From NCBI GenBank assembly GCA_021162125.1, contig JAGGZG010000239.1:1-35804 (forward strand): a stretch of DNA of 35,804 bases, in the 5' to 3' direction. A program made the translations under genes and the position numbers. The DNA is from Anaerolineae bacterium (GTDB lineage: Bacteria; Chloroflexota; Anaerolineae; JACIWR01). Position 1 is the first letter of the stretch. Each line of letters begins with the position of its first letter. This document shows, piece by piece, positions 10,727-32,318 of this stretch. Below the pieces are notes generated by a model. The model made no database searches. It worked only from the letters and a program-made list of their open reading frames with translations, and was not told the origin of the DNA.

Positions 10727-11716
10727 TCATCCTTCATCGAACACCTTGCGGTACGCTTCGTCAACCTCTTCGTCGCTGAGGTGGGTGTAGCGTTCGGTGG
10801 TGCTGATGTTCTCGTGTCGCGCTGCGCGCTGTGCCAGGTGGATGTTCCCCGTTGCGGATACGATGCGGGTGACGAAGTCGTGGCGGAAGGAGTGGGGGGT
10901 GATACCCTCGGCTTCCTCCGGCGAGAGGGCCAATGCCGCGTAATGTTTGACCAGTTTCTCGACGGTGCGTGGGCTGAGGGGCAGCACCCGCTTCCCGGCG
11001 CCCCGGTCGTGGCGGGCGAAGAGGGGCAGGCTGCCTAGCGATTGTGGCTGCTCTCCATCCAGGATCTGCCGGGCGGACAGGTAGCGGCGGATGCGGGTCA
11101 ATGCGCGGTGCGAGAAACGGACCACGGCCTGTTTGTCGCCTTTGCCGATGATCATCGCCTGCGCCCGGTTCCAGTCAATGTCCCGCCGGCGCAGGGCACA
11201 TAGCTCCGAGACGCGCAATCCGGTGTCGGCCAGGGTCACCAGCAGCGCCACGTCACGCAGGGCGAGGAGACGCTTCTCGTTCTCGGCCATCATCAACTGC
11301 GCTTCTGCCTCGGCGATGATGCGGTCCACCTTCTCGGCCAGGCCCAGTGGGGGGAGCCGTTGGCCCAGGCGGCGGCGTCGCTTGAGCAGAGAGTCCATGC
11401 GTGCCAGGTTAACCTCGGCCCACCCCTCGCCGGCGACGTAACGGTAGAACCCGGAGACGGCGGTGGTGTACAGGTGCTCGGTGGCCACGGCGTAGGTCTT
11501 CAGGTCGCGGAGGAGGTGAAGGAGCCACTCCGGGGTGAGTGCCGCCACCGGCGTGCGCGCCGGGTTGATCTCCTGAGCGCGCAGGGTCTCGGTGAAAAAG
11601 CTCAGCCCCCGGCGATAAGCGGCGACCGTTTTGGGATTGCGGCCAATCACGTTCTGGAGGAAATCCAGGTAGCGGTCCATGGCCTGTTCGATGGTCAGCG
11701 TGGTTTCCTGCTGCAT
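10727..11716 (-). CDS. Tyrosine recombinase (XerC/XerD-like)
   Basis: Catalytic set R (TGLRVSEL), K (GKGDK), HxxR (HSFRH), H and Y (ARHENISTTERYTH); SAM-like N-terminus. Start set at ATG 11716 because the upstream extension includes tandem repeat. Confidence 0.92.
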   Translation of the reverse strand: MQQETTLTIEQAMDRYLDFLQNVIGRNPKTVAAYRRGLSFFTETLRAQEINPARTPVAALTPEWLLHLLRDLKTYAVATEHLYTTAVSGFYRYVAGEGWAEVNLARMDSLLKRRRRLGQRLPPLGLAEKVDRIIAEAEAQLMMAENEKRLLALRDVALLVTLADTGLRVSELCALRRRDIDWNRAQAMIIGKGDKQAVVRFSHRALTRIRRYLSARQILDGEQPQSLGSLPLFARHDRGAGKRVLPLSPRTVEKLVKHYAALALSPEEAEGITPHSFRHDFVTRIVSATGNIHLAQRAARHENISTTERYTHLSDEEVDEAYRKVFDEG

Positions 11717-11752
11717 GTCAGATGCAAGCTCTCCAGTCTGGACGAGCTGGAA

Positions 11753-11789
11753 GCAAGCGGGCAAGTGTGCAAATCAGCAAATCGGCAAA
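11753..11789. repeat. 8-nt tandem repeat (GCAAATCR-like), same family as 6954-7025
   Basis: GCAAGCGG GCAAGTGT GCAAATCA GCAAATCG GCAAA. Confidence 0.7.
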
Positions 11790-18853: not shown

Positions 18854-18890
18854 ACAAGTGCCACGCACTTCTGAAGTGCGCGGCACTTGT
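18854..18890. repeat. REP-like palindrome, family A, between convergent genes (possible terminator)
   Basis: ACAAGTGCCACGCACTTC-T-GAAGTGCGCGGCACTTGT. Confidence 0.8.
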
Positions 18891-18936: not shown

Positions 18937-19707
18937 TCACACCGGGCTGGTGGCCCTTTGTTCAATCCACTGGCGAGCGGCCCGCTGTTGGCGACACTCG
19001 GGGCACAGCGCCCACAGGTCTTCGATTTCGGGGAACATCTCCTTGAGGAAAGACATCGGTTCGGGGACGAAAAAGCGGCCGCACTGTGGGCAGGTGTGCA
19101 ACTCCACCGTGGTGTGCCAGGTATGCAGGATGCGCTTGTTGCCCTGGTCCTCCATCTTGATCGCGCCGGTGGGGCAGATTTCGGCGCACGCCCCGCAGCC
19201 GATACAGGCATCGGACTGCACGTCGAAAGGGGTGCCCACTCTGCGCTCCATTCCCCGGCCGATGAAGCTGATGGCCGCTGCGCCTATCGCCTCGCGGCAG
19301 ACGCGCACGCATAATCCACACAACACACACAACTCATCGGCCCGTTCGGGTGGGGGGGCGCCGAAGCGGGAGGTGGTTATTCCCTCTTTGGCAGCCATCT
19401 CCCGTATCACGTCGGATTGTGGGCAGCGGCTCAGGAGGAACTCCAGTGCCAGGTGACGGGCGGTCGCCGCTTCCGGCACATTGGTCTCCACGACCATTCC
19501 CTCTTCCACCGGGTAGGCGCAGGAGGCGACGAGAGCGTGGCGAGGCGCAGTGATGACTACCATGCACAGCCGGCACGCGCCGTAGGGGGCCAGCCCTTCG
19601 TGGTAGCAGAGCGTGGGCAATTCCACTCCGGCAGCGCGCACCGCCTGCAGGACGGTTGTGCCGTCGGGCACGGTCACAGGCTGTCCGTTCACGGTCAGAT
19701 TTATCAT
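18937..19707 (-). CDS. Short NuoG/HydA-N-terminal-like Fe-S subunit (BfuA-like; no H-cluster or Mo domain)
   Basis: 2Fe-2S PTLC...GACRLC...ASC; 2x4Fe-4S CVLCGLCVRVC and CIGCGACAEICP; C-terminal CPQC...CPEC; GAGGTG RBS before ATG 19707. Confidence 0.88.
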   Translation of the reverse strand: MINLTVNGQPVTVPDGTTVLQAVRAAGVELPTLCYHEGLAPYGACRLCMVVITAPRHALVASCAYPVEEGMVVETNVPEAATARHLALEFLLSRCPQSDVIREMAAKEGITTSRFGAPPPERADELCVLCGLCVRVCREAIGAAAISFIGRGMERRVGTPFDVQSDACIGCGACAEICPTGAIKMEDQGNKRILHTWHTTVELHTCPQCGRFFVPEPMSFLKEMFPEIEDLWALCPECRQQRAARQWIEQRATSPV

Positions 19708-19732
19708 TGATTTCACCTCACGATCTCCGCTG

Positions 19733-19765
19733 ATCCTCCCGCAGGTTCCAAACCTGCGGGAGGAT
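19733..19765. repeat. REP-like palindrome, family B (intergenic copy)
   Basis: ATCCTCCCGCAGGTT-CCA-AACCTGCGGGAGGAT; the 29-bp core is identical to 21259-21287. Confidence 0.85.
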
Positions 19766-19766
19766 G

Positions 19767-21650
19767 TCATTTCACGATCTCGATGGCCCCCACGGGGCAG
19801 ACGTCGTAGCACATACGGCAGCGCGTGCACAGCTCGGGATCAATGACGTGCGGCTTTTTCTTCTCCCCACTGATAGCGCCTGCAGGGCACTCGCGCTTGC
19901 AGAGGCCGCAGCCAGTGCATAGATCGGGCTGGATGACGAGCCGGATCAGTGCGCGGCAGACGCCCGCCGGACAGCGTTTCTCCACCACGTGCGCCTCGTA
20001 CTCATCGCGGAAGTAGCGCAACGTGGAGAGCACCGGGTTAGGGGCCGTCTGACCCAACCCGCACAGCGAGGCCGTCTTGACCCACCTGGCTACTTCTTCC
20101 AGCAGATCCAGGTCCTCCGGTGTCCCCTTACCTTCGACAATGCGGGTGAGTATCTCGTGCATATAGCGTGTACCCTCGCGGCAGGGCGTGCACTTGCCGC
20201 ACGATTCGGCCATGGTGAAACCGAGAAAGTAGCGGGCTACGTCCACCATGCAGGTGTCCTCGTCCATGACCACCATGCCGCCGGAGCCCATGATGGAACC
20301 GGCCTGGGTCAGAGTTTCATAACTGATAGGCAGGTCGAACAGGCGGGCCGGAAGACAGCCGCCAGAGGGGCCGCCGGTCTGCACAGCTTTCACCGCCTTG
20401 CCGTTCAACCCGCCGCCACCGATGCCTTCGATCATGTCGCGCAGTGTGAGACCCAGCGGCACCTCCACCAGGCCGGTGTTAGCGACTTTGCCCACCAGGG
20501 AGAAAACGACTGTGCCCGCATTGTTCTCCGTACCGATGGCAGCGTACCAGTCGGCACCCTCGCTTATAATCACGGGCACTGTGGCCAGAGTCTTGACGTT
20601 GTTGATGACAGTGGGCTTACCCCACAACCCGCTGGTTGCCGGGAAAGGCGGCCTGGGTCGGGGCTCGCCCAATCCGCCCTCGATGGAGGAGATGAGCGCT
20701 GTTTCCTCTCCGCAGACGAAAGCGCCCGCCCCACGCACGATGGTAATGCTGAAATCGAAGCCGGAGTCGAAGATGCTGTCCCCCAGCAGCCCCAGTTCCT
20801 CGGCGCGGGCTACGGCCTGGGTGACGCGCTCGACGGCCAGCGGGTACTCGTCGCGCACGTAGATGTATCCCTGGCGTGCGCCGATAGCATATCCCGCGAT
20901 GGTCAAGCCCTCGATGACGCTGTAAGGGTCGCTCTCCAGCACAGTGCGGTCCATGTACGCGCCGGGGTCTCCCTCGTCGCCGTTGCAGATAACGTATTTG
21001 GGTTGTCCAGGAGCATCGTGGCAGATTTGCCATTTGCGCCCGGTGGGGAACCCGGCGCCGCCCCGTCCACGCAACCCGGAGCCAAGCACTTCGTCAATGG
21101 TTTCTTGTGGTGTAAGATCCAACAGGACGTGCGCCAGCGCCTGGTAGCCTCCCCGGGCGACGTATTCCTCGACGCGGGTAGGGTCAATCAGGCCGCAGTT
21201 ACGCAGGATGATCTTGCGCTGGCGAGCATAGAAGGGCAGTTCGTTGAGGAGGGGTAAACCTCCCGCAGGTTCCAAACCTGCGGGAGGTTCCTTTTCTTCC
21301 GGGATTACGGCAAGTGCACCCTCCGCCGGCAGTTCGCCCCTGGCCAGATCTGCGATCAGCTCGCGGGCACGGTCGGCGGTCATGCGGGCATAGAGGACGC
21401 GGTCTCGGCCTGGCATCCGCACGTCCACCAGCGGTTCTTGTTGGCAGTAGCCCAGGCAACCGGTGGCGATGAGCATGAGGTCCAGTCCGCGTGCTGCCGC
21501 CTCATCGCGCAGTGCATCGTACACGGCGGCAGCTCCCGTAGCCAGACCACAGGTGGCCATCCCCACGCTGATCTTCAGCCGGGAGGGATAAAGGGTGGAC
21601 AGACCGTCGGCGCGCAGTGTCTCTAAATCGGAACGGCTGTGTACCTTCAT
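19767..21650 (-). CDS. NuoF/HydB-like FMN/NAD(H) subunit (BfuB-like)
   Basis: N-terminal thioredoxin-like 2Fe-2S domain (TCG...GCLGYC), GLRGRGGAGFPTG, NGDEGDPGAYMD, GAFVCGEETAL, GGPSGG, SCGKCTPCREG, SLCGLG, H-x5-CPAGVC and a C-terminal 2x4Fe-4S domain. Confidence 0.95.
   Translation of the reverse strand: MKVHSRSDLETLRADGLSTLYPSRLKISVGMATCGLATGAAAVYDALRDEAAARGLDLMLIATGCLGYCQQEPLVDVRMPGRDRVLYARMTADRARELIADLARGELPAEGALAVIPEEKEPPAGLEPAGGLPLLNELPFYARQRKIILRNCGLIDPTRVEEYVARGGYQALAHVLLDLTPQETIDEVLGSGLRGRGGAGFPTGRKWQICHDAPGQPKYVICNGDEGDPGAYMDRTVLESDPYSVIEGLTIAGYAIGARQGYIYVRDEYPLAVERVTQAVARAEELGLLGDSIFDSGFDFSITIVRGAGAFVCGEETALISSIEGGLGEPRPRPPFPATSGLWGKPTVINNVKTLATVPVIISEGADWYAAIGTENNAGTVVFSLVGKVANTGLVEVPLGLTLRDMIEGIGGGGLNGKAVKAVQTGGPSGGCLPARLFDLPISYETLTQAGSIMGSGGMVVMDEDTCMVDVARYFLGFTMAESCGKCTPCREGTRYMHEILTRIVEGKGTPEDLDLLEEVARWVKTASLCGLGQTAPNPVLSTLRYFRDEYEAHVVEKRCPAGVCRALIRLVIQPDLCTGCGLCKRECPAGAISGEKKKPHVIDPELCTRCRMCYDVCPVGAIEIVK
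21257..21289. repeat. REP-like palindrome, family B, in-frame inside the NuoF-like CDS
   Basis: 33-bp AACCTCCCGCAGGTT-CCA-AACCTGCGGGAGGTT, translating as EPPAGLEPAGGL. Confidence 0.85.
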
Positions 21651-22096
21651 GTTTCCTGCCCCCGGTACTTCTTCAGGATACGCGGGAGGCGGTCGGCTTT
21701 GAGTCGGCCGTAGGTATCACCGTTCACCCGGATCACCGGCGACATGCTGCATGAGCCGAGGCAGTGCACCGTTTCGAGGGTGAAGGCCCGGTCGTCGGTC
21801 GTCTCGCCCGGCTTTACCCCCAGGGTCGTTTCCAATTTCTCCAGCAGTTTCTCACCACCCCGGATGTAACAGGCTGTGCCCAGGCAGACATGGATGGTGT
21901 GGCGGCCGCGTGGCTTGAAACTGAAGGCGGCGTAAAAAGTGGCGGCACTGTAGAGCTGGCTCAGCGGCACGTTCAGTTCGTCGGCTGCGTGACGCAGTTC
22001 CTCCTCCGGCAGATAGCCGTGCTCGGCGTTGATAGCGTGCAACTTGGCCAACAACGCACCCCCGGCGGGGGGCGGCGGTTGAGCGATGAGTGGCAT
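21647..22096 (-). CDS. NuoE/HydC-like 2Fe-2S subunit (BfuC-like)
   Basis: GYLP, ATFY, VCLGTACYIRG and HCLGSC; AGGAGGT RBS before ATG 22096; ATGA overlap with the NuoF-like gene. Confidence 0.93.
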   Translation of the reverse strand: MPLIAQPPPPAGGALLAKLHAINAEHGYLPEEELRHAADELNVPLSQLYSAATFYAAFSFKPRGRHTIHVCLGTACYIRGGEKLLEKLETTLGVKPGETTDDRAFTLETVHCLGSCSMSPVIRVNGDTYGRLKADRLPRILKKYRGQET

Positions 22097-22105
22097 GGTC
22101 ACCTC

Positions 22106-24014: not shown

Positions 24015-24566
24015 TTATTGACTGCTGGCTAACTGTTTCTGGCTTTCCAGCGCGTCCAGGAATTGCCGGGCTGCGGCCTGGGTAGCTTGATGGATGACCT
24101 CGGTGGGATATTTCAGGCTGAGCGCCTTGGTTGGGCAGGCTTCCACGCAGGCCGGGCCACCAGGCCGATCCACGCACAAGTCGCATTTGAAAGCCGCCGC
24201 CTTCTCACGGCCAGCCACCTCGGTGGTGGCCACGTGAATCGCGCCGAAAGGACAGACCATCATGCACAGTCGGCAGGCGATGCACAGCCGCTGATCCACC
24301 GCCGTGTAAGTTTCGGTGCGATAAAGGGCTCCAGTGGGGCAGACCCGCACGCAGGGTGCGTCCTCGCACTGGCGGCACTGGGTAGAGAGCTTCACGCTGT
24401 CCACCTGGACCACGCGGTTGCGGCGGTATAGCTTCTCGCCGGCCAGGACAGCACCGATGATGTTGCCCGCCGTGGTGTGGGCTGCCGCACAGGCCAGCTC
24501 GCAAGTGTGGCAACCCAGGCAGCGTTCCGGGTTGACGAGGATGAATGGGCCTTCGAGTTTGTTCAT
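24015..24566 (-). CDS. cooF: CooF/HydN-like 4x[4Fe-4S] electron-transfer protein
   Basis: CLGCHTCELAC, CRQCEDAPCVRVCP, CIACRLCMMVCP and KCDLC...PACVEACP; directly upstream of cooS; AAGGAGGTG RBS. Confidence 0.88.
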   Translation of the reverse strand: MNKLEGPFILVNPERCLGCHTCELACAAAHTTAGNIIGAVLAGEKLYRRNRVVQVDSVKLSTQCRQCEDAPCVRVCPTGALYRTETYTAVDQRLCIACRLCMMVCPFGAIHVATTEVAGREKAAAFKCDLCVDRPGGPACVEACPTKALSLKYPTEVIHQATQAAARQFLDALESQKQLASSQ

Positions 24567-24594
24567 GCGTTTTCACCTCCTTCGAACTTAATTC

Positions 24595-24629
24595 AAGTGC
24601 CCGGCACTTGCAAAAAGTGCTGGGCACTT
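24595..24629. repeat. REP-like palindrome, family A
   Basis: AAGTGCCCGGCACTT-GCAAA-AAGTGCTGGGCACTT. Confidence 0.8.
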
Positions 24630-24661
24630 CTGAAATGGGGAATGGGCAATTTGTGCTGGTA

Positions 24662-24814
24662 CAGAGTGTTGCATGAGTGGAGTCTCGAACTTGTTCGGGG
24701 TACTCTGGCTAACCGGAGGTTGGTTTGTCCGGGCCGTTCTGCAACAAGTTGCGGACTCCGGCCGGCGACCAGGCACAGGGACAAATCCCTTAAAAGTACT
24801 TATGCAACACACTG
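24662..24814. mobile_element. 153-bp MITE-like element with 17-bp terminal inverted repeats and 6-bp target-site duplication
   Basis: Ends CAGAGTGTTGCATGAGT / ACTTATGCAACACACTG (15/17 complementary); CTGGTA directly flanks both ends (24656-24661, 24815-24820). Confidence 0.75.
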
Positions 24815-24998
24815 CTGGTATGGAAAAACCAAAAACGCATCCACGGCTCGAGGATGCCGGGATGTCATTTACGTTCGAGGAACGTCTGAAGAAACGATAG
24901 GCTTTCATAGCCTCTCAGAGAGCTTCAATCCCTCGGTCAGACTCAGTGGGTTAGGTTAAATGTTAGAGACGTGGGGAAGGAACAAGAAGAACAAGTTC

Positions 24999-25067
24999 AG
25001 TGTAGCATACAAATACCCGTGATGTAATATCCGTTCGCAGGGTATTTGCTTCACCTGAATGGGTGAA
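24999..25067 (-). promoter_or_regulatory. Candidate regulated promoter of the coo operon: extended -10 plus upstream inverted repeats
   Basis: TG-c-TACACT at 25007-24999 with no consensus -35; inverted repeats AAATACCC...GGGTATTT (25011-25047) and TTCACC-N6-GGTGAA (25050-25067). Confidence 0.45.
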
Positions 25068-25078
25068 ATGGAGGAGTG

Positions 25079-25708
25079 TCACAACAATCCGCGCTTGGTT
25101 GCCCGCATTACAGCTTCGATGCGGTTGTGGGCATCCAGTTTCTGATACAGGTTCTGGATGTAGGTCTTGATGGTGTTTTCACTCAGACAAAGACGCTGTG
25201 CGATCTCGCGATTAGTCAGTCCCTCGGCGATCAGGCGCAAGATCTCGATCTCGCGCAGGGTTAAACGGTCAGGGACATCATCCGCCGGCCCTTCCTGTAA
25301 CCAATTGAACATCATGCGGGCGACACGCGGGTCTACCGGGGATCCATCTCGCACCAACTCACGGATGCTGCGCCGCAGGTCTGTGCTGGCCACGTCTTTC
25401 AGCACATAGCCCCTGGCCCCGGCGCGAATACATTCCTGTACTACACCACTATCCAGATAACCGGTCAGGATTAGCACTACTGTCCCAGGTACATCATGTT
25501 GGATGCGGTAGCACAGTTCAATGCCGCTGATTCTGGGGAGACGCACGTCCACCAGCGCCACGTCGGGGTGGGTAGCGTGGATTACGCGCAGGGCCTCTTC
25601 GCCATCTCCAGCCTCTCCTACGACTTCAAATTCGGGATCGCCTTGTAGGATGGCGGCGATGCCCCGGCGCACAATTTCGTGATCGTCTACAACGACAACA
25701 CGGATCAT
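25079..25708 (-). CDS. NarL/LuxR-family response regulator (DosR/DevR-like)
   Basis: VVDDHEIVRRG, VDVRLP, GARGYVLK, LTLREIEIL, GLTNREIA and TIKTY; ATGA overlap with the kinase stop. Confidence 0.93.
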   Translation of the reverse strand: MIRVVVVDDHEIVRRGIAAILQGDPEFEVVGEAGDGEEALRVIHATHPDVALVDVRLPRISGIELCYRIQHDVPGTVVLILTGYLDSGVVQECIRAGARGYVLKDVASTDLRRSIRELVRDGSPVDPRVARMMFNWLQEGPADDVPDRLTLREIEILRLIAEGLTNREIAQRLCLSENTIKTYIQNLYQKLDAHNRIEAVMRATKRGLL

Positions 25709-26865
25709 TGGCTTGCTGTCTCCCGTTTGGGTAGCCACGCCTTGACTATCAGCCCGCCCTCGTCGCCGTTCGCCAGGCTCAACCGCCCACCGGCCTTTTC
25801 CACCATCGTGCGAGTCGTGGATATGCCGAAGTGGTATCCATCACCTTGCAACACGATTGGCAGGTGAGAGGGCGGAATCCCCACGCCGTCGTCCTGTATG
25901 GTGACAACTAATTCATCCCGATTGCAGGAAAGTGTGACCAATACCATCGTTGCTTGGGCATGCTTGCGCACATTCGCCAACGCTTCTTGCACCACACGAA
26001 TCACCGCATTCCGCAATTGGGTGTTAGGGACAGCGAGGCGAGGTGGAAGAACCAGGCAGGTTTCTATGGCTGTGGTATCCTCGAATTCCTGAACCAGTGT
26101 GCGCAAGGCGCAGGAGAGCGTATCCTGGCCGTCACTTTGTGAGAGGGCGAAGATAGCATTGCGAACTTCGCTGCTGCCCTGTGCCGAAAGGCGACCTATG
26201 GCCTCCAGGTGTGCGTCAGGTGGAAGATTGTCAGCCAGGGCATCCAATCCCTGTTTCGCTTCCAGGCCGATGATGTAAAAGAGTTGCGCTACTGTGTCGT
26301 GCAGATTATTGGCCAGGCGTTCTCGCTCTCGCAGGCGGGCCATCTCCTGTGATTGAGCGTAGAGCCGGGCATTTTCAATGGCGATGGCCGCCTGGGTGGA
26401 GAAAGCAGAAAGTAGCTCTTCGTCGTCCGCGGTAAAAGCTGGCTCCCCTGGCCCGTTGCCCACGAAGAGGACGCCCAGGACATGGCCTTTGGACTGGAGG
26501 GGCACGGTCAGGAGCGCCTTGACGGGAGGGTGGCCTGGTGGCATACCTACTGCTTGCGGATGCTGCTGCACGTCTGTCACCCGCAGAGGTCGTCCATCGC
26601 GCAACGGGGCGGCGAAAAGCCCGCTGCCCTGGGGCAAGCGGTTGAGAGGGTAGGGCCAACCACAGACCTTGAAGCAGTCGAAACGTTGGCCCTCTTCCTG
26701 GCTCAGCACCAGCAATCCCCCTAATTCCGCGCCGATGAGCCGCGTGGCCGTGTCCACGATCTCCTGGAGCAGGGGGTCCAAATCCAGCCGGGAGGCTATC
26801 GAGCGGCTGACCTCCATCAAACGGGAGAGCTGATGAACTTTGCGTTCCAGATATTCTTTAGACAT
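25705..26865 (-). CDS. Cytoplasmic GAF + HisKA_3 sensor histidine kinase (DosS/DosT-like GAF)
   Basis: GAF with HPQAVGMPPGHPPVKALLTVPL; H-box ERERLANNLHDTVAQ; QEALANVRKHA, DDGVG and HFGI; no TM segment. Start ATG 26865 has a weak RBS. Confidence 0.9.
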   Translation of the reverse strand: MSKEYLERKVHQLSRLMEVSRSIASRLDLDPLLQEIVDTATRLIGAELGGLLVLSQEEGQRFDCFKVCGWPYPLNRLPQGSGLFAAPLRDGRPLRVTDVQQHPQAVGMPPGHPPVKALLTVPLQSKGHVLGVLFVGNGPGEPAFTADDEELLSAFSTQAAIAIENARLYAQSQEMARLRERERLANNLHDTVAQLFYIIGLEAKQGLDALADNLPPDAHLEAIGRLSAQGSSEVRNAIFALSQSDGQDTLSCALRTLVQEFEDTTAIETCLVLPPRLAVPNTQLRNAVIRVVQEALANVRKHAQATMVLVTLSCNRDELVVTIQDDGVGIPPSHLPIVLQGDGYHFGISTTRTMVEKAGGRLSLANGDEGGLIVKAWLPKRETASQ

Positions 26866-29028: not shown

Positions 29029-31683
29029 TCACAGCCCGCCCAGGCTCTCCAGTCGTTCCCGCAGCTTCTGCCACTTCTCCCGATACTTGGTTACCTTGTC
29101 GCGTTCTTTTTGCACGACGTGGGCCGGGGCCTTGGAGATAAAATTCTTGTTGGTCAGCAGAATCTGGCTATTGGCGATGAGCTTGGTCAGGCGTTCCATT
29201 TCGTTGGCGATGCGCGCTTTCTCCGCTTCCACATCTATCATCCCGGCCAGTGGCAGGTAGATCGTCACTCCGCCGACTACCAGAGTCAGCGCCTGGGCCG
29301 GAACATCCGTCAGCGTCGTGTCCAGTTCCAGCCGCTCAGAGTCCAGGTGGGCCAGGGATAGCAGGATGTCCTGCTGTTCGCGGAGCAGGTCGTAGTACTT
29401 GCCGGCCGCTATGGACGCAGCAATGCGCTGTTTCGGCTGCACGCTGAACTCGGCGCGGGCATTGCGGATGGCGCGCACGATGTCCATCAGCAGCTCGATG
29501 GCCGTCTCGGCTTCCTCGTCCACCCCACCAGCCCGCGGCCAGGGAGCGATCATGATGCTCTCACCCTCGTGGGGCAGATTCTGCCAGATGGCCTCGGTGA
29601 CGAAGGGCATAAAGGGATGCAGGAGGCGCATCGTTCGTTCCAGGACGTACGCCAGCACTTGCCGGGCGGCGTTCTGGGCGCTGGGGTCCTGGCCATAAAG
29701 GCGCACCTTAGCCATCTCGATGTACCAGTCGCAGAACTCACCCCACAGGAAGTCGTAGATCTGCCGTCCGGCCTCGCCGTACTGGTACTGTTCGATCAGG
29801 CGCGTCACGTCCGCCACCAGGCGATTGCTGCGGCTGATAATCCATTTGTCCACCGGGTTCTGCTCCGGTAGATTTTGGATGGAGATGCCGGGCTTGACCG
29901 ATTCGTCCATGTGGCTGACCACGAAGCGGGCCGCGTTCCAGATTTTATTGGCGAAGTTGCGGCTGGCCTCCACCCGTTGCAGGGATAGCTTCATGTCGTT
30001 GCCCGGCGAGGAGCCGGTGAGCAGGGTGAAACGCAGCGCGTCCGCGCCGTATTCGTCAACGATGTTAAGTGGGTCGTATTTTTCGGCGTCGGGCATGGAC
30101 TTGCTGATCTTCTCGCCCCGTTCATTGCGGATCAACCCGTGCAGGTACACTATGCTGTAGGGCGCTTGTCCGGTCATGGCCAGGCCGAGCATGATCTCCC
30201 GGGCCACCCAGAAGAACAGGATGTCGTACCCGGTCTCGCGCATCGTGGTCGGATAGAAGTACTGGAAATCTTCGGTCTCCTCAGGCCAACCCAGCGTGGA
30301 GAAGGGCCACAGCCCGGAGGAGAACCAGGTGTCGAGCACGTCGGGGTCCTGGCGGATGTTGGTACTGCCGCAGTGGGCGCACTTGGTGGGGTCCGTTACC
30401 TCGCAAGTCTGGCCGCCGCAGTCATCGCAGTACCATACCGGGATGCGGTGGCCCCACCACAGTTGGCGGCTGATGCACCAGTCGCGGATGTTCTCCAGCC
30501 AGTTGAAGTACACCTTGGTGAAACGTTCGGGCACGATGCGGATGCGCCCGTCGCGCACGGCCTCCAGGGCCGCGTCGGCCAGGGACTTGATCTTGACGAA
30601 CCATTGGGTGGACACGTATGGCTCGATCACAGTGTTGCAGCGTTGGCAGTGGCCCAGGGAGTGCTGGTAGTTCTCAACTTTAACCAATAGCCCGGCCTTC
30701 TCCAGGTCGGCTACCAGGTTCTTGCGGCATTCGTAGCGATCCTGACCCTGGTACGGGCCGGCGGCCTCGTTCATAGTGCCGTTCTCGTTGAGCACATTGA
30801 TGACCGGCAAATCGTGCCGCTGCCCGATTTCGTAGTCAGTGGGGTCGTGGCCCGGGGTCACTTTTACTGCGCCGGTGCCGAACTCGGGGTCCACAACCTC
30901 GTCGGCGATGATGGGGATGCGGCGTTCCAGTATCGGTAGGATGGCCGTGCGCCCGACCATTGCCGTATAGCGTTCGTCGTCCGGGTGAACGGCCACGGCG
31001 GTATCGCCCAGGATGGTCTCCGGCCGGGTGGTGGCCACCTCGATGAACCCGCCGCCTTCCAGCGGGTAGCGCACGTACCATAGCTTGCCGGTCCTCTCCT
31101 CGTGGACCACCTCCAGGTCGGAGATGGCGGAGGTGCAGCGCGGACACCAGTTCACCAGATAAGTGCCCCGGTAGATCAATCCCTGCTTGTACAGGCGCAC
31201 GAAAGCCTCGCGCACCGCCCGTGACAGCCCCTCGTCCAGGGTGAAGCGCTCTCGCTCCCAATCGCAGGAGACGCCCAGCCGGCGGTGCTGGTCGGTGATG
31301 CGCTTGTGGTAGATTTCCTTCCATTGCCACACCCGCTCTATGAATTTCTCGCGGCCCAGGTCATGCCGGGTGAGGCCCTCCTTGGCCAGCTCGCGCTCCA
31401 CCACGTTCTGCGTGGCGATGCCGGCGTGGTCCGAACCGGGCAACCAGAGGGTAGGATCGCCCTTCATGCGATGGTAGCGGGTCACCAGGTCTTCCACTGC
31501 TGCGGTAATAGCGTGACCCAGGTGCAGTGCCCCGGTGACGTTGGGCGGTGGCATGGTGATGGTGAAGGGCTTTTTCCAGGGGTTAATCTCCGGACGGAAG
31601 TATCCTTTTCTCTCCCACCAGTCGTAGATAGGCTTTTCCGCTTTTTGCGGATTGTAGGTTTTGGGCATTTTGATCTTGCTCAT
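29029..31683 (-). CDS. valS: Valine--tRNA ligase
   Basis: PPPNVTGALHLGH, DHAGIATQ, TTRPET, DWCISRQLWWGH, DVLDTWFSS, KISKS and a C-terminal coiled-coil arm. Confidence 0.98.
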   Translation of the reverse strand: MSKIKMPKTYNPQKAEKPIYDWWERKGYFRPEINPWKKPFTITMPPPNVTGALHLGHAITAAVEDLVTRYHRMKGDPTLWLPGSDHAGIATQNVVERELAKEGLTRHDLGREKFIERVWQWKEIYHKRITDQHRRLGVSCDWERERFTLDEGLSRAVREAFVRLYKQGLIYRGTYLVNWCPRCTSAISDLEVVHEERTGKLWYVRYPLEGGGFIEVATTRPETILGDTAVAVHPDDERYTAMVGRTAILPILERRIPIIADEVVDPEFGTGAVKVTPGHDPTDYEIGQRHDLPVINVLNENGTMNEAAGPYQGQDRYECRKNLVADLEKAGLLVKVENYQHSLGHCQRCNTVIEPYVSTQWFVKIKSLADAALEAVRDGRIRIVPERFTKVYFNWLENIRDWCISRQLWWGHRIPVWYCDDCGGQTCEVTDPTKCAHCGSTNIRQDPDVLDTWFSSGLWPFSTLGWPEETEDFQYFYPTTMRETGYDILFFWVAREIMLGLAMTGQAPYSIVYLHGLIRNERGEKISKSMPDAEKYDPLNIVDEYGADALRFTLLTGSSPGNDMKLSLQRVEASRNFANKIWNAARFVVSHMDESVKPGISIQNLPEQNPVDKWIISRSNRLVADVTRLIEQYQYGEAGRQIYDFLWGEFCDWYIEMAKVRLYGQDPSAQNAARQVLAYVLERTMRLLHPFMPFVTEAIWQNLPHEGESIMIAPWPRAGGVDEEAETAIELLMDIVRAIRNARAEFSVQPKQRIAASIAAGKYYDLLREQQDILLSLAHLDSERLELDTTLTDVPAQALTLVVGGVTIYLPLAGMIDVEAEKARIANEMERLTKLIANSQILLTNKNFISKAPAHVVQKERDKVTKYREKWQKLRERLESLGGL

Positions 31684-31942: not shown

Positions 31943-31976
31943 AAAAGCCCCTCTCGCCTCAAGGACGAGAGGGGCT
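31943..31976 (-). terminator. T-box intrinsic terminator
   Basis: AGCCCCTCTCGTCCTTGAGGCGAGAGGGGCT followed by a short U-tract; overlaps the antiterminator strand CGTCCTT. Confidence 0.85.
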
Positions 31977-32182
31977 CCCTCACGCGGTACCACCTTGCTT
32001 CTGGTCAACCGACCAGCGCTCTGCGGCTGTAACGGGCCGACCCGTGCTGGCCTACTGCTGTGGCCATCAGCCAGCAGACTCCCAGGCGACCTTCGACTGG
32101 CGGCCGGTGCGCGGGGCTTCCAGCCGGTGACCCCGCTTCTCTATCACCGCAGTCCAGCCTACTCCTCCTGTTCACCGTCTTT
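31943..32182 (-). ncRNA. Val T-box riboswitch leader of valS
   Basis: T-box AAGGTGGTACCGCG (31996-31983); stem I motifs GGAGTAG, AGAGAAG, GCTGGAA; specifier GAAG-GTC (Val codon, 32090-32088). Confidence 0.93.
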
Positions 32183-32250
32183 CACAGTCTATGATGAATG
32201 AAGAGTGAGGGAGTTTTGGGAACCCCCTTGCTCCCTCACGGCTGTTTTTA

Positions 32251-32284: not shown

Positions 32285-32318
32285 AGGTGCCCGGCACTTG
32301 AAGAAGTGCCGGGCACCT
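32285..32318. repeat. REP-like palindrome, family A
   Basis: AGGTGCCCGGCACTT-GAAG-AAGTGCCGGGCACCT between divergent promoters. Confidence 0.8.

Follow-up and report, generated by a model that had tools for sequence, protein, structure and literature searches.

The window analysed here is a 35,804-nt stretch of DNA from an Anaerolineae bacterium (contig JAGGZG010000239.1), whose genome assembly comprises 407 contigs and 3.5 Mb and is 89% complete. On the minus strand of the window, seven genes are lined up between positions 18937 and 26865. The first two encode a sensor histidine kinase and a response regulator; after a spacer of 512 bp they are followed by cooF, cooS, nuoE, nuoF and a hoxU-like gene (Table 1), of which cooS encodes the catalytic subunit of a nickel-containing carbon monoxide dehydrogenase (Ni-CODH). 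The likely ATG of the regulator overlaps the stop codon of the kinase as ATGA. Near-identical DNA (at least half of the sampled words) was found in 16 sequencing runs, whose labels are hydrothermal vent, sediment or marine metagenome; none of these 16 is listed as an RNA run. On balance, we favour the reading that the kinase and the regulator constitute a two-component signalling system of DosS/DosR type, which is dedicated to the adjacent Ni-CODH operon and whose signal is most likely carbon monoxide (CO).

Three domains of the kinase were identified by Pfam, GAF_2 at residues 27–164 (E 3e-24), HisKA_3 at residues 180–244 and HATPase_c at residues 286–381. The GAF domain is preceded by 26 hydrophilic residues only, which leave no space for a membrane segment; judged from the translation alone, the kinase is a soluble, cytoplasmic protein. 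DesK and the ATPase domain of DevS are among its matches in PDB (phmmer and profile searches). In an alignment of 52 family sequences, H189, D190 and Q194 of the H-box are invariant or nearly so; the HDxxxQ pattern that they form is presumably the phosphatase motif of HisKA_3 kinases. The regulator contains both a receiver and a helix-turn-helix (HTH) domain, and it matches DevR/DosR (3c3w, 2e-44) best in PDB, ahead of VraR (4e-37) and NarL (3e-29). Its acceptor-Asp segment DVALVDVRLP (DVxxxDVRLP) aligns with DevR. At the recognition-helix positions of DevR, which we take to be Lys179 and Asn183, the aligned regulator has Asn and Thr; owing to this difference, its DNA site is expected to differ from that of DevR. 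The recognition helix starts with SENT(I/V)K across the regulator clades linked to coo genes and to cox genes.

By phmmer against all PDB sequences, the closest solved GAF domains to the kinase are GAF-A of DevS (DosS) and DosT, with E-values of 5e-22 and 1e-20, respectively; the next GAF, that of PDE2A, has an E-value of 7e-10. With a profile of 52 family members, the values are 1e-40 for DevS GAF-A, 7e-38 for DosT and 9e-18 for the next GAF. The segment HPxxxGxPxxHPP is common to the kinase family and DosS/DosT, and His112 of the kinase aligns with the proximal heme ligand of DosS, His149 (chain residue 92); the DosS numbering follows the crystallised construct (Asp63–Arg210 plus five extra residues), and the roles of the residues follow an excerpt of a review (PMC4082495). 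H102, H112 and F134 are, like H189 and Q194, invariant in the 52-sequence alignment. Among 75 GAF matches in the host genome, this kinase is the only one with His at both motif positions. The proximal His is present in 13/14, 10/10 and 15/15 family loci of three locus sets, and the sole exception is L016, a paralogue linked to formate hydrogenlyase genes, which has Tyr instead.

The distal side of the pocket differs from that of DosS and DosT. Instead of the distal Tyr (Tyr171 in DosS, Tyr169 in DosT), the kinase has Phe134, and Phe is found at this position in all family loci of the three sets (14/14, 10/10 and 15/15). The positions of DosS Glu87 and His89 are aliphatic in the family, being either Leu/Leu or, in one cox-linked clade, Val/Val and Val/Ala. 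With Leu52, Leu54 and Phe134 in place of Glu87, His89 and Tyr171, the predicted pocket would therefore lack a hydrogen-bond donor such as the one through which O2 is read in DosS and DosT. According to the review excerpt, DosS and DosT both bind CO, Tyr171 of DosS hydrogen-bonds O2 and is required for ligand discrimination, and the Y171F mutant of DosS shows tighter binding of O2 and CO and is inactivated by O2, CO and nitric oxide (NO) alike (PMC4082495). Tyr occupies the position of Tyr171 in 128 of the 134 non-family, His-bearing DosS-like GAFs among the matches listed (51/57 at genome loci and 77/77 at metagenome loci).

Like the mycobacterial DosS(DevS)/DosT–DosR systems, the pair would thus combine a HisKA_3 and HATPase_c core, a heme-GAF-A-like domain with the predicted proximal His and a DevR-like regulator. 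DosS and DosT, however, contain GAF-A and GAF-B in tandem, have Tyr171, Glu87 and His89 on the distal side and serve a dormancy regulon, whereas here we found a single GAF match, Phe/Leu/Leu and a CODH neighbour. Because of the single GAF and the missing distal Tyr, the kinase is not a DosS/DosT in the strict sense. The initial annotation had described a soluble single-GAF HisKA_3 kinase and a coupled NarL-type regulator, directly upstream of and co-oriented with cooF, and a GAF segment closely similar to DosS/DosT with its second His at the heme-ligand position. The Pfam matches, the ATGA overlap, the common strand, the PDB matches and the alignment of His112 with His149 all bear this description out, with a 512-bp spacer to be added between the regulator and cooF. 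Its caveat that kinases without any relation to CO can have this GAF motif too was correct as well; it is the distal residue, Phe versus Tyr, that separates the family from them.

The extent of the kinase family was defined by a word-indexed search of 5.8 billion proteins. The family comprises ∼95 clusters of 373–426 aa, which cover the full length of the kinase with 42–97% identity; below it, the scores fall far, to two-GAF proteins of 540–640 aa. Among 38 informative family loci, 13 are linked to Ni-CODH genes (cooFS), 19 to the genes of form-I molybdenum-containing CODH (Mo-CODH; coxMSL) and three to formate hydrogenlyase genes, and the remaining three have other neighbours or none. The 13 Ni-CODH-linked loci are the window, L012, L013, L100, L101, L102, L104, L106, L108, L213, L264, L238 and L112; L238 (cooF) and L112 (cooF-like) were counted here although their contigs end after cooF. 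CooS of L213 and L264 matches TIGR01702 with 745 and 623 bits, respectively (cut-off 478). The family occupies 14 places in 11 Anaerolineae genomes, and at nine of them the pair lies immediately upstream of cooF/cooS.

At six of the cox-linked loci (L206–L211), whose family proteins are labelled Firmicutes or Actinomycetia by NCBI, the pair is divergent from coxM-coxS-coxL. CoxL matches TIGR02416 with 1236–1245 bits in the three loci tested (cut-off 991), as form-I enzymes do, and the loop VAYRCSFR is present in all six. Over the 19 cox-linked loci, the loop reads AYRCSFR in 16, SYRCSFR in one and AHRCSFR in two. In the portion available of one paper, the AYXCSFR loop and the coxMSL gene order are given as the signature of form-I CODH (PMC7645674). 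Taken together, 32 of the 38 family loci are linked to CODH, under several phyla-level labels, in three gene arrangements and with two unrelated enzymes.

The association was tested independently in a second bacterial class, that of one cox-linked genome, in which 20 of 201 genomes contain the family. Several of these carriers (G813, G863, G924 and G947) are genomes of a single contig and may stem from cultures. Fifteen new loci were obtained: 13 are cox-linked (eight divergently adjacent and five at a distance of 1.6–5.5 kb), one is linked to cooF-cooS and one shows neither before its contig ends, so that 14/15 are linked to CODH. The CoxL loop of the 13 cox-linked loci is AYRCSFR in 10, SYRCSFR in one and AHRCSFR in two. 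The controls were 201 loci that encode different kinases of the GAF-HisKA_3 type; 81 and 77 of them came from the matches listed in profile scans of contigs and metagenomes, respectively, and 23 + 20 are distant matches of protein scans. The contig scan used the full-length family alignment and retrieved generic H-box patterns; the metagenome scan used a GAF alignment of six sequences and retrieved mostly non-family DosS-like GAFs. None of the 201 control loci has cooS. Form-I coxL was found at two of them (L024 and L061), which both belong to a Tyr-less sister clade of the family, and at none of the remaining 199. The kinases of L024 (10001–14635, a metagenome-assembled genome labelled Dormibacterota) and L061 (10001–18481, bacterium HR28) are 34% identical to the window kinase; they keep the ligand His, have Gly at the position of Tyr171 and, together with a regulator, precede coxMSL on the same strand.

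The relationships among the kinases were analysed using a quick IQ-TREE tree of 55 rows, which carries SH-aLRT supports only and, having long branches and non-independent relatives, is to be read with caution. Forty-one rows of Tyr-less kinases group together as a single clade (SH-aLRT 100), in which the Gly pair (L024 and L061) is sister to 39 Phe-type rows (92); one outgroup row with Phe, L215, lies outside this clade. Two cox-linked clades, one with six rows (100) and one with 14 (99), as well as L264 as a lone row, branch around an Anaerolineae clade of 18 rows (98), which is composed of the window, 11 other Ni-CODH rows, three hydrogenlyase rows, two rows with other neighbours and one unknown. 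The hydrogenlyase rows form one clade (98), which is sister to a Ni-CODH clade from the same genomes. Mapping of the neighbours on the tree requires at least three changes for Mo-CODH and at least six for Ni-CODH. As the Ni-CODH clade is nested among Mo-CODH-linked clades, the sensor seems to have kept a CO-oxidising neighbour while the type of the enzyme changed. The identities of kinase and CooS to those of the window are incongruent, 50% versus 89% for L102 and 78% versus 75% for L012, which indicates that the link was re-made or was kept through recombination.

Domain architecture, homology, residue pattern and conserved CODH association are all observed in this family. The Mo-Cu and Ni-Fe enzymes, the oxygen regimes and the gene arrangements (pair upstream and co-oriented, divergent, or downstream) share only CO, which points to CO as the signal and argues against a plain sensor of O2 or anoxia; the loss of the O2-contacting Tyr fits a CO signal. 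We are highly confident of a regulatory link between the pair and the adjacent operon, and we lean, with clearly lower confidence, towards the prediction that the kinase senses CO via heme. Another explanation, which we consider rather unlikely, is a hypoxia or redox sensor like DosS and DosT. The heme would then read O2, redox or energy state, CO would be the substrate of the target and not the signal, and an energy-salvaging CODH or formate hydrogenlyase would be switched on. The closest characterised relatives do sense O2 and redox state according to the review excerpt (PMC4082495), Ni-CODH is called O2-sensitive in the excerpts of the literature available, and the three paralogues beside formate hydrogenlyase-type clusters would be natural under a redox or anoxia signal. 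However, the O2-bonding distal Tyr, kept in nearly all other His-bearing DosS-like GAFs listed, is lost in every member of the family, and the family accompanies an O2-sensitive enzyme at 13 loci and an aerobic one at 19, opposite in O2 logic and with only CO in common.

The observations that weigh against a dedicated CO sensor concern the distribution of the pair, the properties of the pocket, heme supply and the operator. In a survey that scored a few best candidates per genome, 401 genomes were sampled from the class of the window, and the family kinase was found in 11 of them, as against none of 400 others in a phylum-wide sample. The cooS clade (at least 59% identity) is present in 36 of the 401 Anaerolineae genomes, including 9 of the 11 with the kinase, and the kinase-regulator pair lies beside cooS in 8 of the 36. 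In the other 28 the pair is not adjacent; no family kinase was found in 27 of them, among which are two congeners of the host, and in G354 the kinase lies on another contig. With 27/36 genomes of the cooS clade lacking a detected family kinase, the system is accessory. No alternative regulator recurs upstream of 14 informative cooS operons without the pair. The initial annotation had proposed to examine the co-occurrence of this kinase clade with cooS; the outcome was strongly positive, extends to the unrelated form-I Mo-CODH and supports its interpretation of the pair as a heme-GAF phosphorelay that controls the CODH operon and possibly senses CO. It had also named two patterns that would speak against a CO sensor. 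Orthologous operons without the system were in part what we found (28/36), and orthologous kinases unlinked to CODH were not.

Six family loci are without a CODH link. At L016, L105 and L107, the pair is followed downstream by a formate-dehydrogenase-alpha-like gene (644 bits; cut-off 666), HycB and a group-4 [NiFe]-hydrogenase, and at L103, L109 and L269 no CO dehydrogenase is within reach. At L103 (8877–9698, plus strand), the locus of G354 with cooS on another contig, the kinase is divergent from genes of acetate kinase and of a CooC-like ATPase of the CbiA/ArsA type, which lie upstream of it, and restriction-modification and SNF2 helicase genes are inserted on its downstream side; at L109, a sugar kinase follows the pair. 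Moreover, genomes that are related do not count as independent samples, and fewer independent events than the counts suggest must be assumed. As to the pocket, the Y171F mutant of DosS is off with any ligand, so that loss of the Tyr alone does not give specificity for CO; the same behaviour means that CO could lower rather than raise the kinase activity and that the regulator could activate or repress. Heme, CO and DNA binding, the response to CO and the operator are predictions from sequence.

HemB (ALAD) and ferrochelatase, and likewise cytochrome bd, were not found in the host genome (G000, 89% complete), and ALAD was not found in the kinase-bearing genomes G031, G177, G245 and G251 or in the congener G001 (84–93% complete). 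In G031, G177 and G245, the kinase adjoins cooS. ALAD is present in G015, G047, G126, G270 and G354, which leaves 5 of 10 kinase-bearing Anaerolineae genomes tested in which it was not found (G285 was outside the set), and it is present in 5/5 cox-linked or Gly-type genomes tested. URO-D is matched only in part in the host genome (84 bits), and these matches were not accepted as HemE. CcmF- and CcmC-like cytochrome c maturation genes indicate that the organism uses heme, and the host may be a heme scavenger. As a test of the heme cofactor, the pattern of heme-supply genes neither supports nor excludes it.

That ALAD was not found in half of the kinase-bearing Anaerolineae genomes tested would suit a GAF that binds something other than heme-CO, such as another heme ligand (NO, sulfide) or, without heme, a metal or small molecule tied to CO metabolism, with the conserved His serving that ligand. 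GAF domains bind many ligands, as illustrated by PDB matches to cNMP-binding GAFs, and DosS is reported, in an excerpt of another paper, to bind NO and, in its ferric form, sulfide (PMC9062744). We nevertheless regard this explanation as less probable still than a hypoxia or redox sensor: the match to the heme-binding GAF-A is better by 23 orders of magnitude than that to the next solved GAF, almost all family members have the heme-ligating His, the cytochrome c maturation genes and the ALAD genes of the five cox-linked genomes speak for heme, and NO or sulfide would leave the CODH neighbours unexplained.

The spacer between the regulator and cooF is presumed to be the control region of the CODH operon. 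Its first conserved block, just 3' of the regulator stop codon, contains a weak TGn-extended −10-like element (TGCTACACT, TGC-TACACT, 25007–24999), whose counterparts in relatives are TGCTATACT, TGCTATCAT and TGCTATCCT; no sigma-70-like site was found in the spacer at the threshold of the promoter scan. The inverted repeat ATACCC-N21-GGGTAT in the same block, which overlaps the weak promoter-like element, is a candidate operator, and such ATACCC/GGGTAT repeats with a spacer of 18–26 occur three times in the 3.5-Mb genome. Among eight cox-linked spacers of one clade, five contain ATACC-N6-GGTAT (shuffle maximum 2), and GATCC-N4-GGATC occurs in 5 of the 6 coxM-kinase spacers of L206–L211 and also in L260 (shuffle maximum 2). 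The presence of ATACC/GGTAT in cox-linked spacers, together with the common SENT(I/V)K start of the recognition helix, suggests it as a candidate half-site in the window. On the other side, no inverted repeat is common to all spacers, the Ni-CODH-linked ones yielded no operator in common, and the half-site [CG]ATCC is not enriched in the latter. It is nonetheless very improbable that the adjacency has no regulatory meaning and the pair, regulating distant genes, merely travels with CODH clusters: the pair is missing at the 90%-identical operon of G001, no copy was found in either congener and no operator is established in the window, but 32/38 loci are linked in three arrangements and with two unrelated enzymes versus 0/199 controls, the incongruent identities of kinase and CooS point to a link re-made or kept through recombination, and the palindromes conserved in coxM-kinase spacers exceed shuffled controls.

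Other elements of the spacer were also considered. The palindromes AAGTGC-N3-GCACTT before cooF were rejected as an operator; they form a repetitive extragenic palindrome (REP)-like hairpin that is dispersed genome-wide, with 26 exact and 144 one-mismatch sites, mostly paired. The perfect hairpin AGGTGCCCGGCACTT-N3-AAGTGCCGGGCACCT and its variants are located at 18856–18888, 24595–24629 and 32285–32318 of the window, and G001 has a copy between cooS and nuoE. The Dos-box-like palindrome GGGAT-TT-GTCCC was rejected, being not conserved in L012. The spacer also contains a 106-aa open reading frame (ORF; 24588–24908, minus strand), the protein of which is not conserved between the window and L012. 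A 160-aa ORF on the plus strand (24477–24959) has no Pfam match. The second conserved block, a leader of ∼100 nt seen only in the kinase subclade of the window, was folded by RNAalifold into a multi-hairpin structure of 37 pairs, seven of them compensatory, from three sequences only; it may act as an attenuator or represent a small RNA. No Rfam match was found in the spacer, leader included. By eye, we noticed long inverted repeats (∼GCCACTTGGGCA ... TGCCCATGTGGC) upstream of a TTGACA/TATAAT-like promoter in the regulator-to-fdh spacers of the hydrogenlyase-linked loci L016, L105 and L107, and a CCACTTG element at an identical distance of 34 nt from the −35 in sister Ni-CODH promoters.

Table 1. 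Features of the kinase-regulator locus and the CODH operon in the window
Feature	Coordinates	Strand	Basis or remarks
Sensor histidine kinase, 386 aa, start MSKEY	25705..26865	−	Short N-terminal helix + one GAF + HisKA_3 (DHp) + HATPase_c
GAF domain, residues 27–164, presumed heme pocket	26374..26787	−	Pfam GAF_2; family profile to DevS GAF-A/DosT
Motif HPQAVGMPPGHPPVKALLTVPL, residues 102–123, with His112 codon 26530–26532	26497..26562	−	Alignment to DevS GAF-A
Phe134 codon, position of DosS distal Tyr171	26464..26466	−	Alignment; Leu52/Leu54 at Glu87/His89 positions
His189 codon, predicted phospho-accepting His, H-box LHDTVAQ	26299..26301	−	HisKA_3 match + family conservation
Response regulator, 209 aa from ATG 25708 (219 aa from GTG 25738)	25079..25708	−	Response_reg + GerE (LuxR HTH), DosR-like
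Regulator-to-cooF spacer, 512 bp, presumed CODH-operon control region	24567..25078	−	Two blocks conserved with orthologous L012 spacer
Inverted repeat ATACCC-N21-GGGTAT, candidate operator	25013..25045	−	Same block as −10-like element
Conserved, possibly structured leader ending in hairpin + T-run	24829..24929	−	Also L012 8782–8881, L238 2970–3069
REP-like hairpin (AAGTGC-N3-GCACTT pair), just upstream of cooF ribosome-binding site	24595..24629	−	Dispersed repeat
cooF-like 4Fe-4S ferredoxin, 183 aa	24015..24566	−	Pfam Fer4 families; HydN/AegA-like in NCBIfam
cooS, Ni-CODH catalytic subunit, 626 aa	22106..23986	−	TIGR01702 752 bits, cut-off 478
NuoE/HoxE-like [2Fe-2S] subunit	21647..22102	−	PF01257 2e-45; NCBIfam
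NuoF/HydB-like FMN subunit, C-terminal 2x[4Fe-4S] region	19767..21650	−	Complex1_51K, NADH_4Fe-4S, Fer4 residues 572–624
HoxU/NuoG-N-terminal-like 2Fe-2S/4Fe-4S subunit	18937..19830 (ORF; homology from ~residue 40)	−	Fer2_4, Fer4; HoxU + FeFe-hydrogenase A6 N-terminal matches

The operon cooF-cooS-nuoEF-hoxU is shared with the congener G001 (L008, G001:C167 10620–15257), the proteins of which are 83–91% identical to those of the window. The genes upstream differ: fmt and a glycosyl hydrolase gene are located there in G001, whereas the window has the two-component system, followed by genes of an aminotransferase, RNase PH and valyl-tRNA synthetase. This points to a rearrangement or insertion at the 5' border of the operon. 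The contig of G002, the other congener, stops 688 bp upstream of cooF; DNA of the kinase or regulator was found in neither of the two genomes. The host genome contains a second, split cooS (G000:C378 1–7744, L017, and G000:C36), which is ∼53–55% identical; 4–6 kb upstream of it are a regulator and a non-family GAF kinase, which is 30% identical and lacks the His motif. A gene of a tyrosine recombinase/integrase (10727–11764, minus strand; Phage_integrase 9e-29) lies ∼7 kb past the end of the operon, beside lipase, hydrolase and ABC-2 transporter genes. An ordinary T-box leader (31958–32184, minus strand; 107 bits, gathering score 93) is located upstream of the valyl-tRNA synthetase gene (29029–31683).

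The mechanism that we propose for the pair is as follows. The single GAF domain would hold a b-type heme on His112, under a distal pocket that Leu52, Leu54 and Phe134 would make wholly apolar. Binding of CO to the ferrous heme would shift the balance of kinase and phosphatase activities at His189, from which the phosphoryl group would be handed to the receiver Asp of the DosR-like regulator. The regulator would then act at the weak promoter in the 512-bp spacer and set the transcription of cooF-cooS-nuoE-nuoF-hoxU-like, the products of which may form a module that passes electrons from CO to NAD(P)+ and/or ferredoxin.

RcoM is reported to have been discovered through its genomic association with both cox and coo genes, which would be the logic followed here too; CorQR is of the LysR type, and the two-component genes of COG0642/COG0745 are of the HisKA/OmpR type, unlike the GAF-HisKA_3/NarL-type pair described here. 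No cNMP_binding/HTH_Crp, PAS plus LytTR or MHYT domain was identified by Pfam in the kinase or the regulator, and no gene with such domains is among the window ORFs scanned. In the portions available of three papers, CooA, RcoM, CorQR and CoxC are listed as CO-responsive regulators (PMC13077300, PMC13725076, PMC11347149). CooA is similar to the present system in being a heme-based, CO-responsive activator beside Ni-CODH genes (PMC11347149, PMC13077300); it is, however, a one-component protein of the CRP family, whereas here sensing and DNA binding would be placed on two proteins joined by phosphotransfer. RcoM is likewise a heme CO sensor and regulates aerobic cox genes (PMC11347149), but it is a single-component protein composed of heme-PAS and LytTR, neither of which is present in the kinase or regulator. 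CorQR of Thermococcus and CoxC of Afipia are also CO-responsive regulators at CODH clusters (PMC13077300, PMC13725076, PMC11347149); CorQR has unrelated domains, CoxC is a copper-dependent repressor in the membrane with an MHYT domain (PMC13725076, PMC11347149), and neither contains a GAF or HisKA_3 kinase. As far as the text available of Inoue et al. (2019) goes, COG0642/COG0745 two-component genes co-occur with Ni-CODH, are tied to no CODH structural group and are left uninterpreted (PMC6344411). According to the excerpt of one recent survey, which covered 80 genomes of 59 genera, no known regulator was found beside the Ni-CODH/ECH loci (PMC13077300). In our search, which covered open-access articles and bioRxiv but neither subscription journals nor supplementary tables (among them those of PMC13077300 and PMC6344411), no account of coo or cox regulation by a GAF kinase was found, and the pair is probably a previously undescribed CO sensor.

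A wider scenario, to which we give about even chances, is that the kinases, following CooA and RcoM, represent the third heme-based class of bacterial CO sensors and the first one that operates as a phosphorelay. They would descend from a DosS-like sensor of O2 or redox state by loss of the distal Tyr network, and the clade would have accompanied CO oxidation through different phyla, through oxic as well as anoxic lifestyles and through the Mo-Cu and Ni-Fe types of CODH. The Ni-CODH branch in Anaerolineae would have been re-wired from a cox-linked ancestor, and the subclade of the window may add a conserved, structured leader RNA before cooF, which would act together with the pair.

Detection of CO by microbes is known for a handful of regulators only. 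If our reading is correct, the pair would add a new sensor class, one found alongside anaerobic and aerobic CO dehydrogenases alike, and would offer a natural experiment in how a gas sensor is retuned by changes in its distal pocket. The kinase could also serve as a compact, soluble part for CO biosensing. For the family as a whole, a simple sequence marker, the ligand His kept and the distal Tyr changed to Phe or Gly, would predict CO-responsive regulation in uncultured Chloroflexota and in Bacillota-labelled, Dormibacterota and other genomes.

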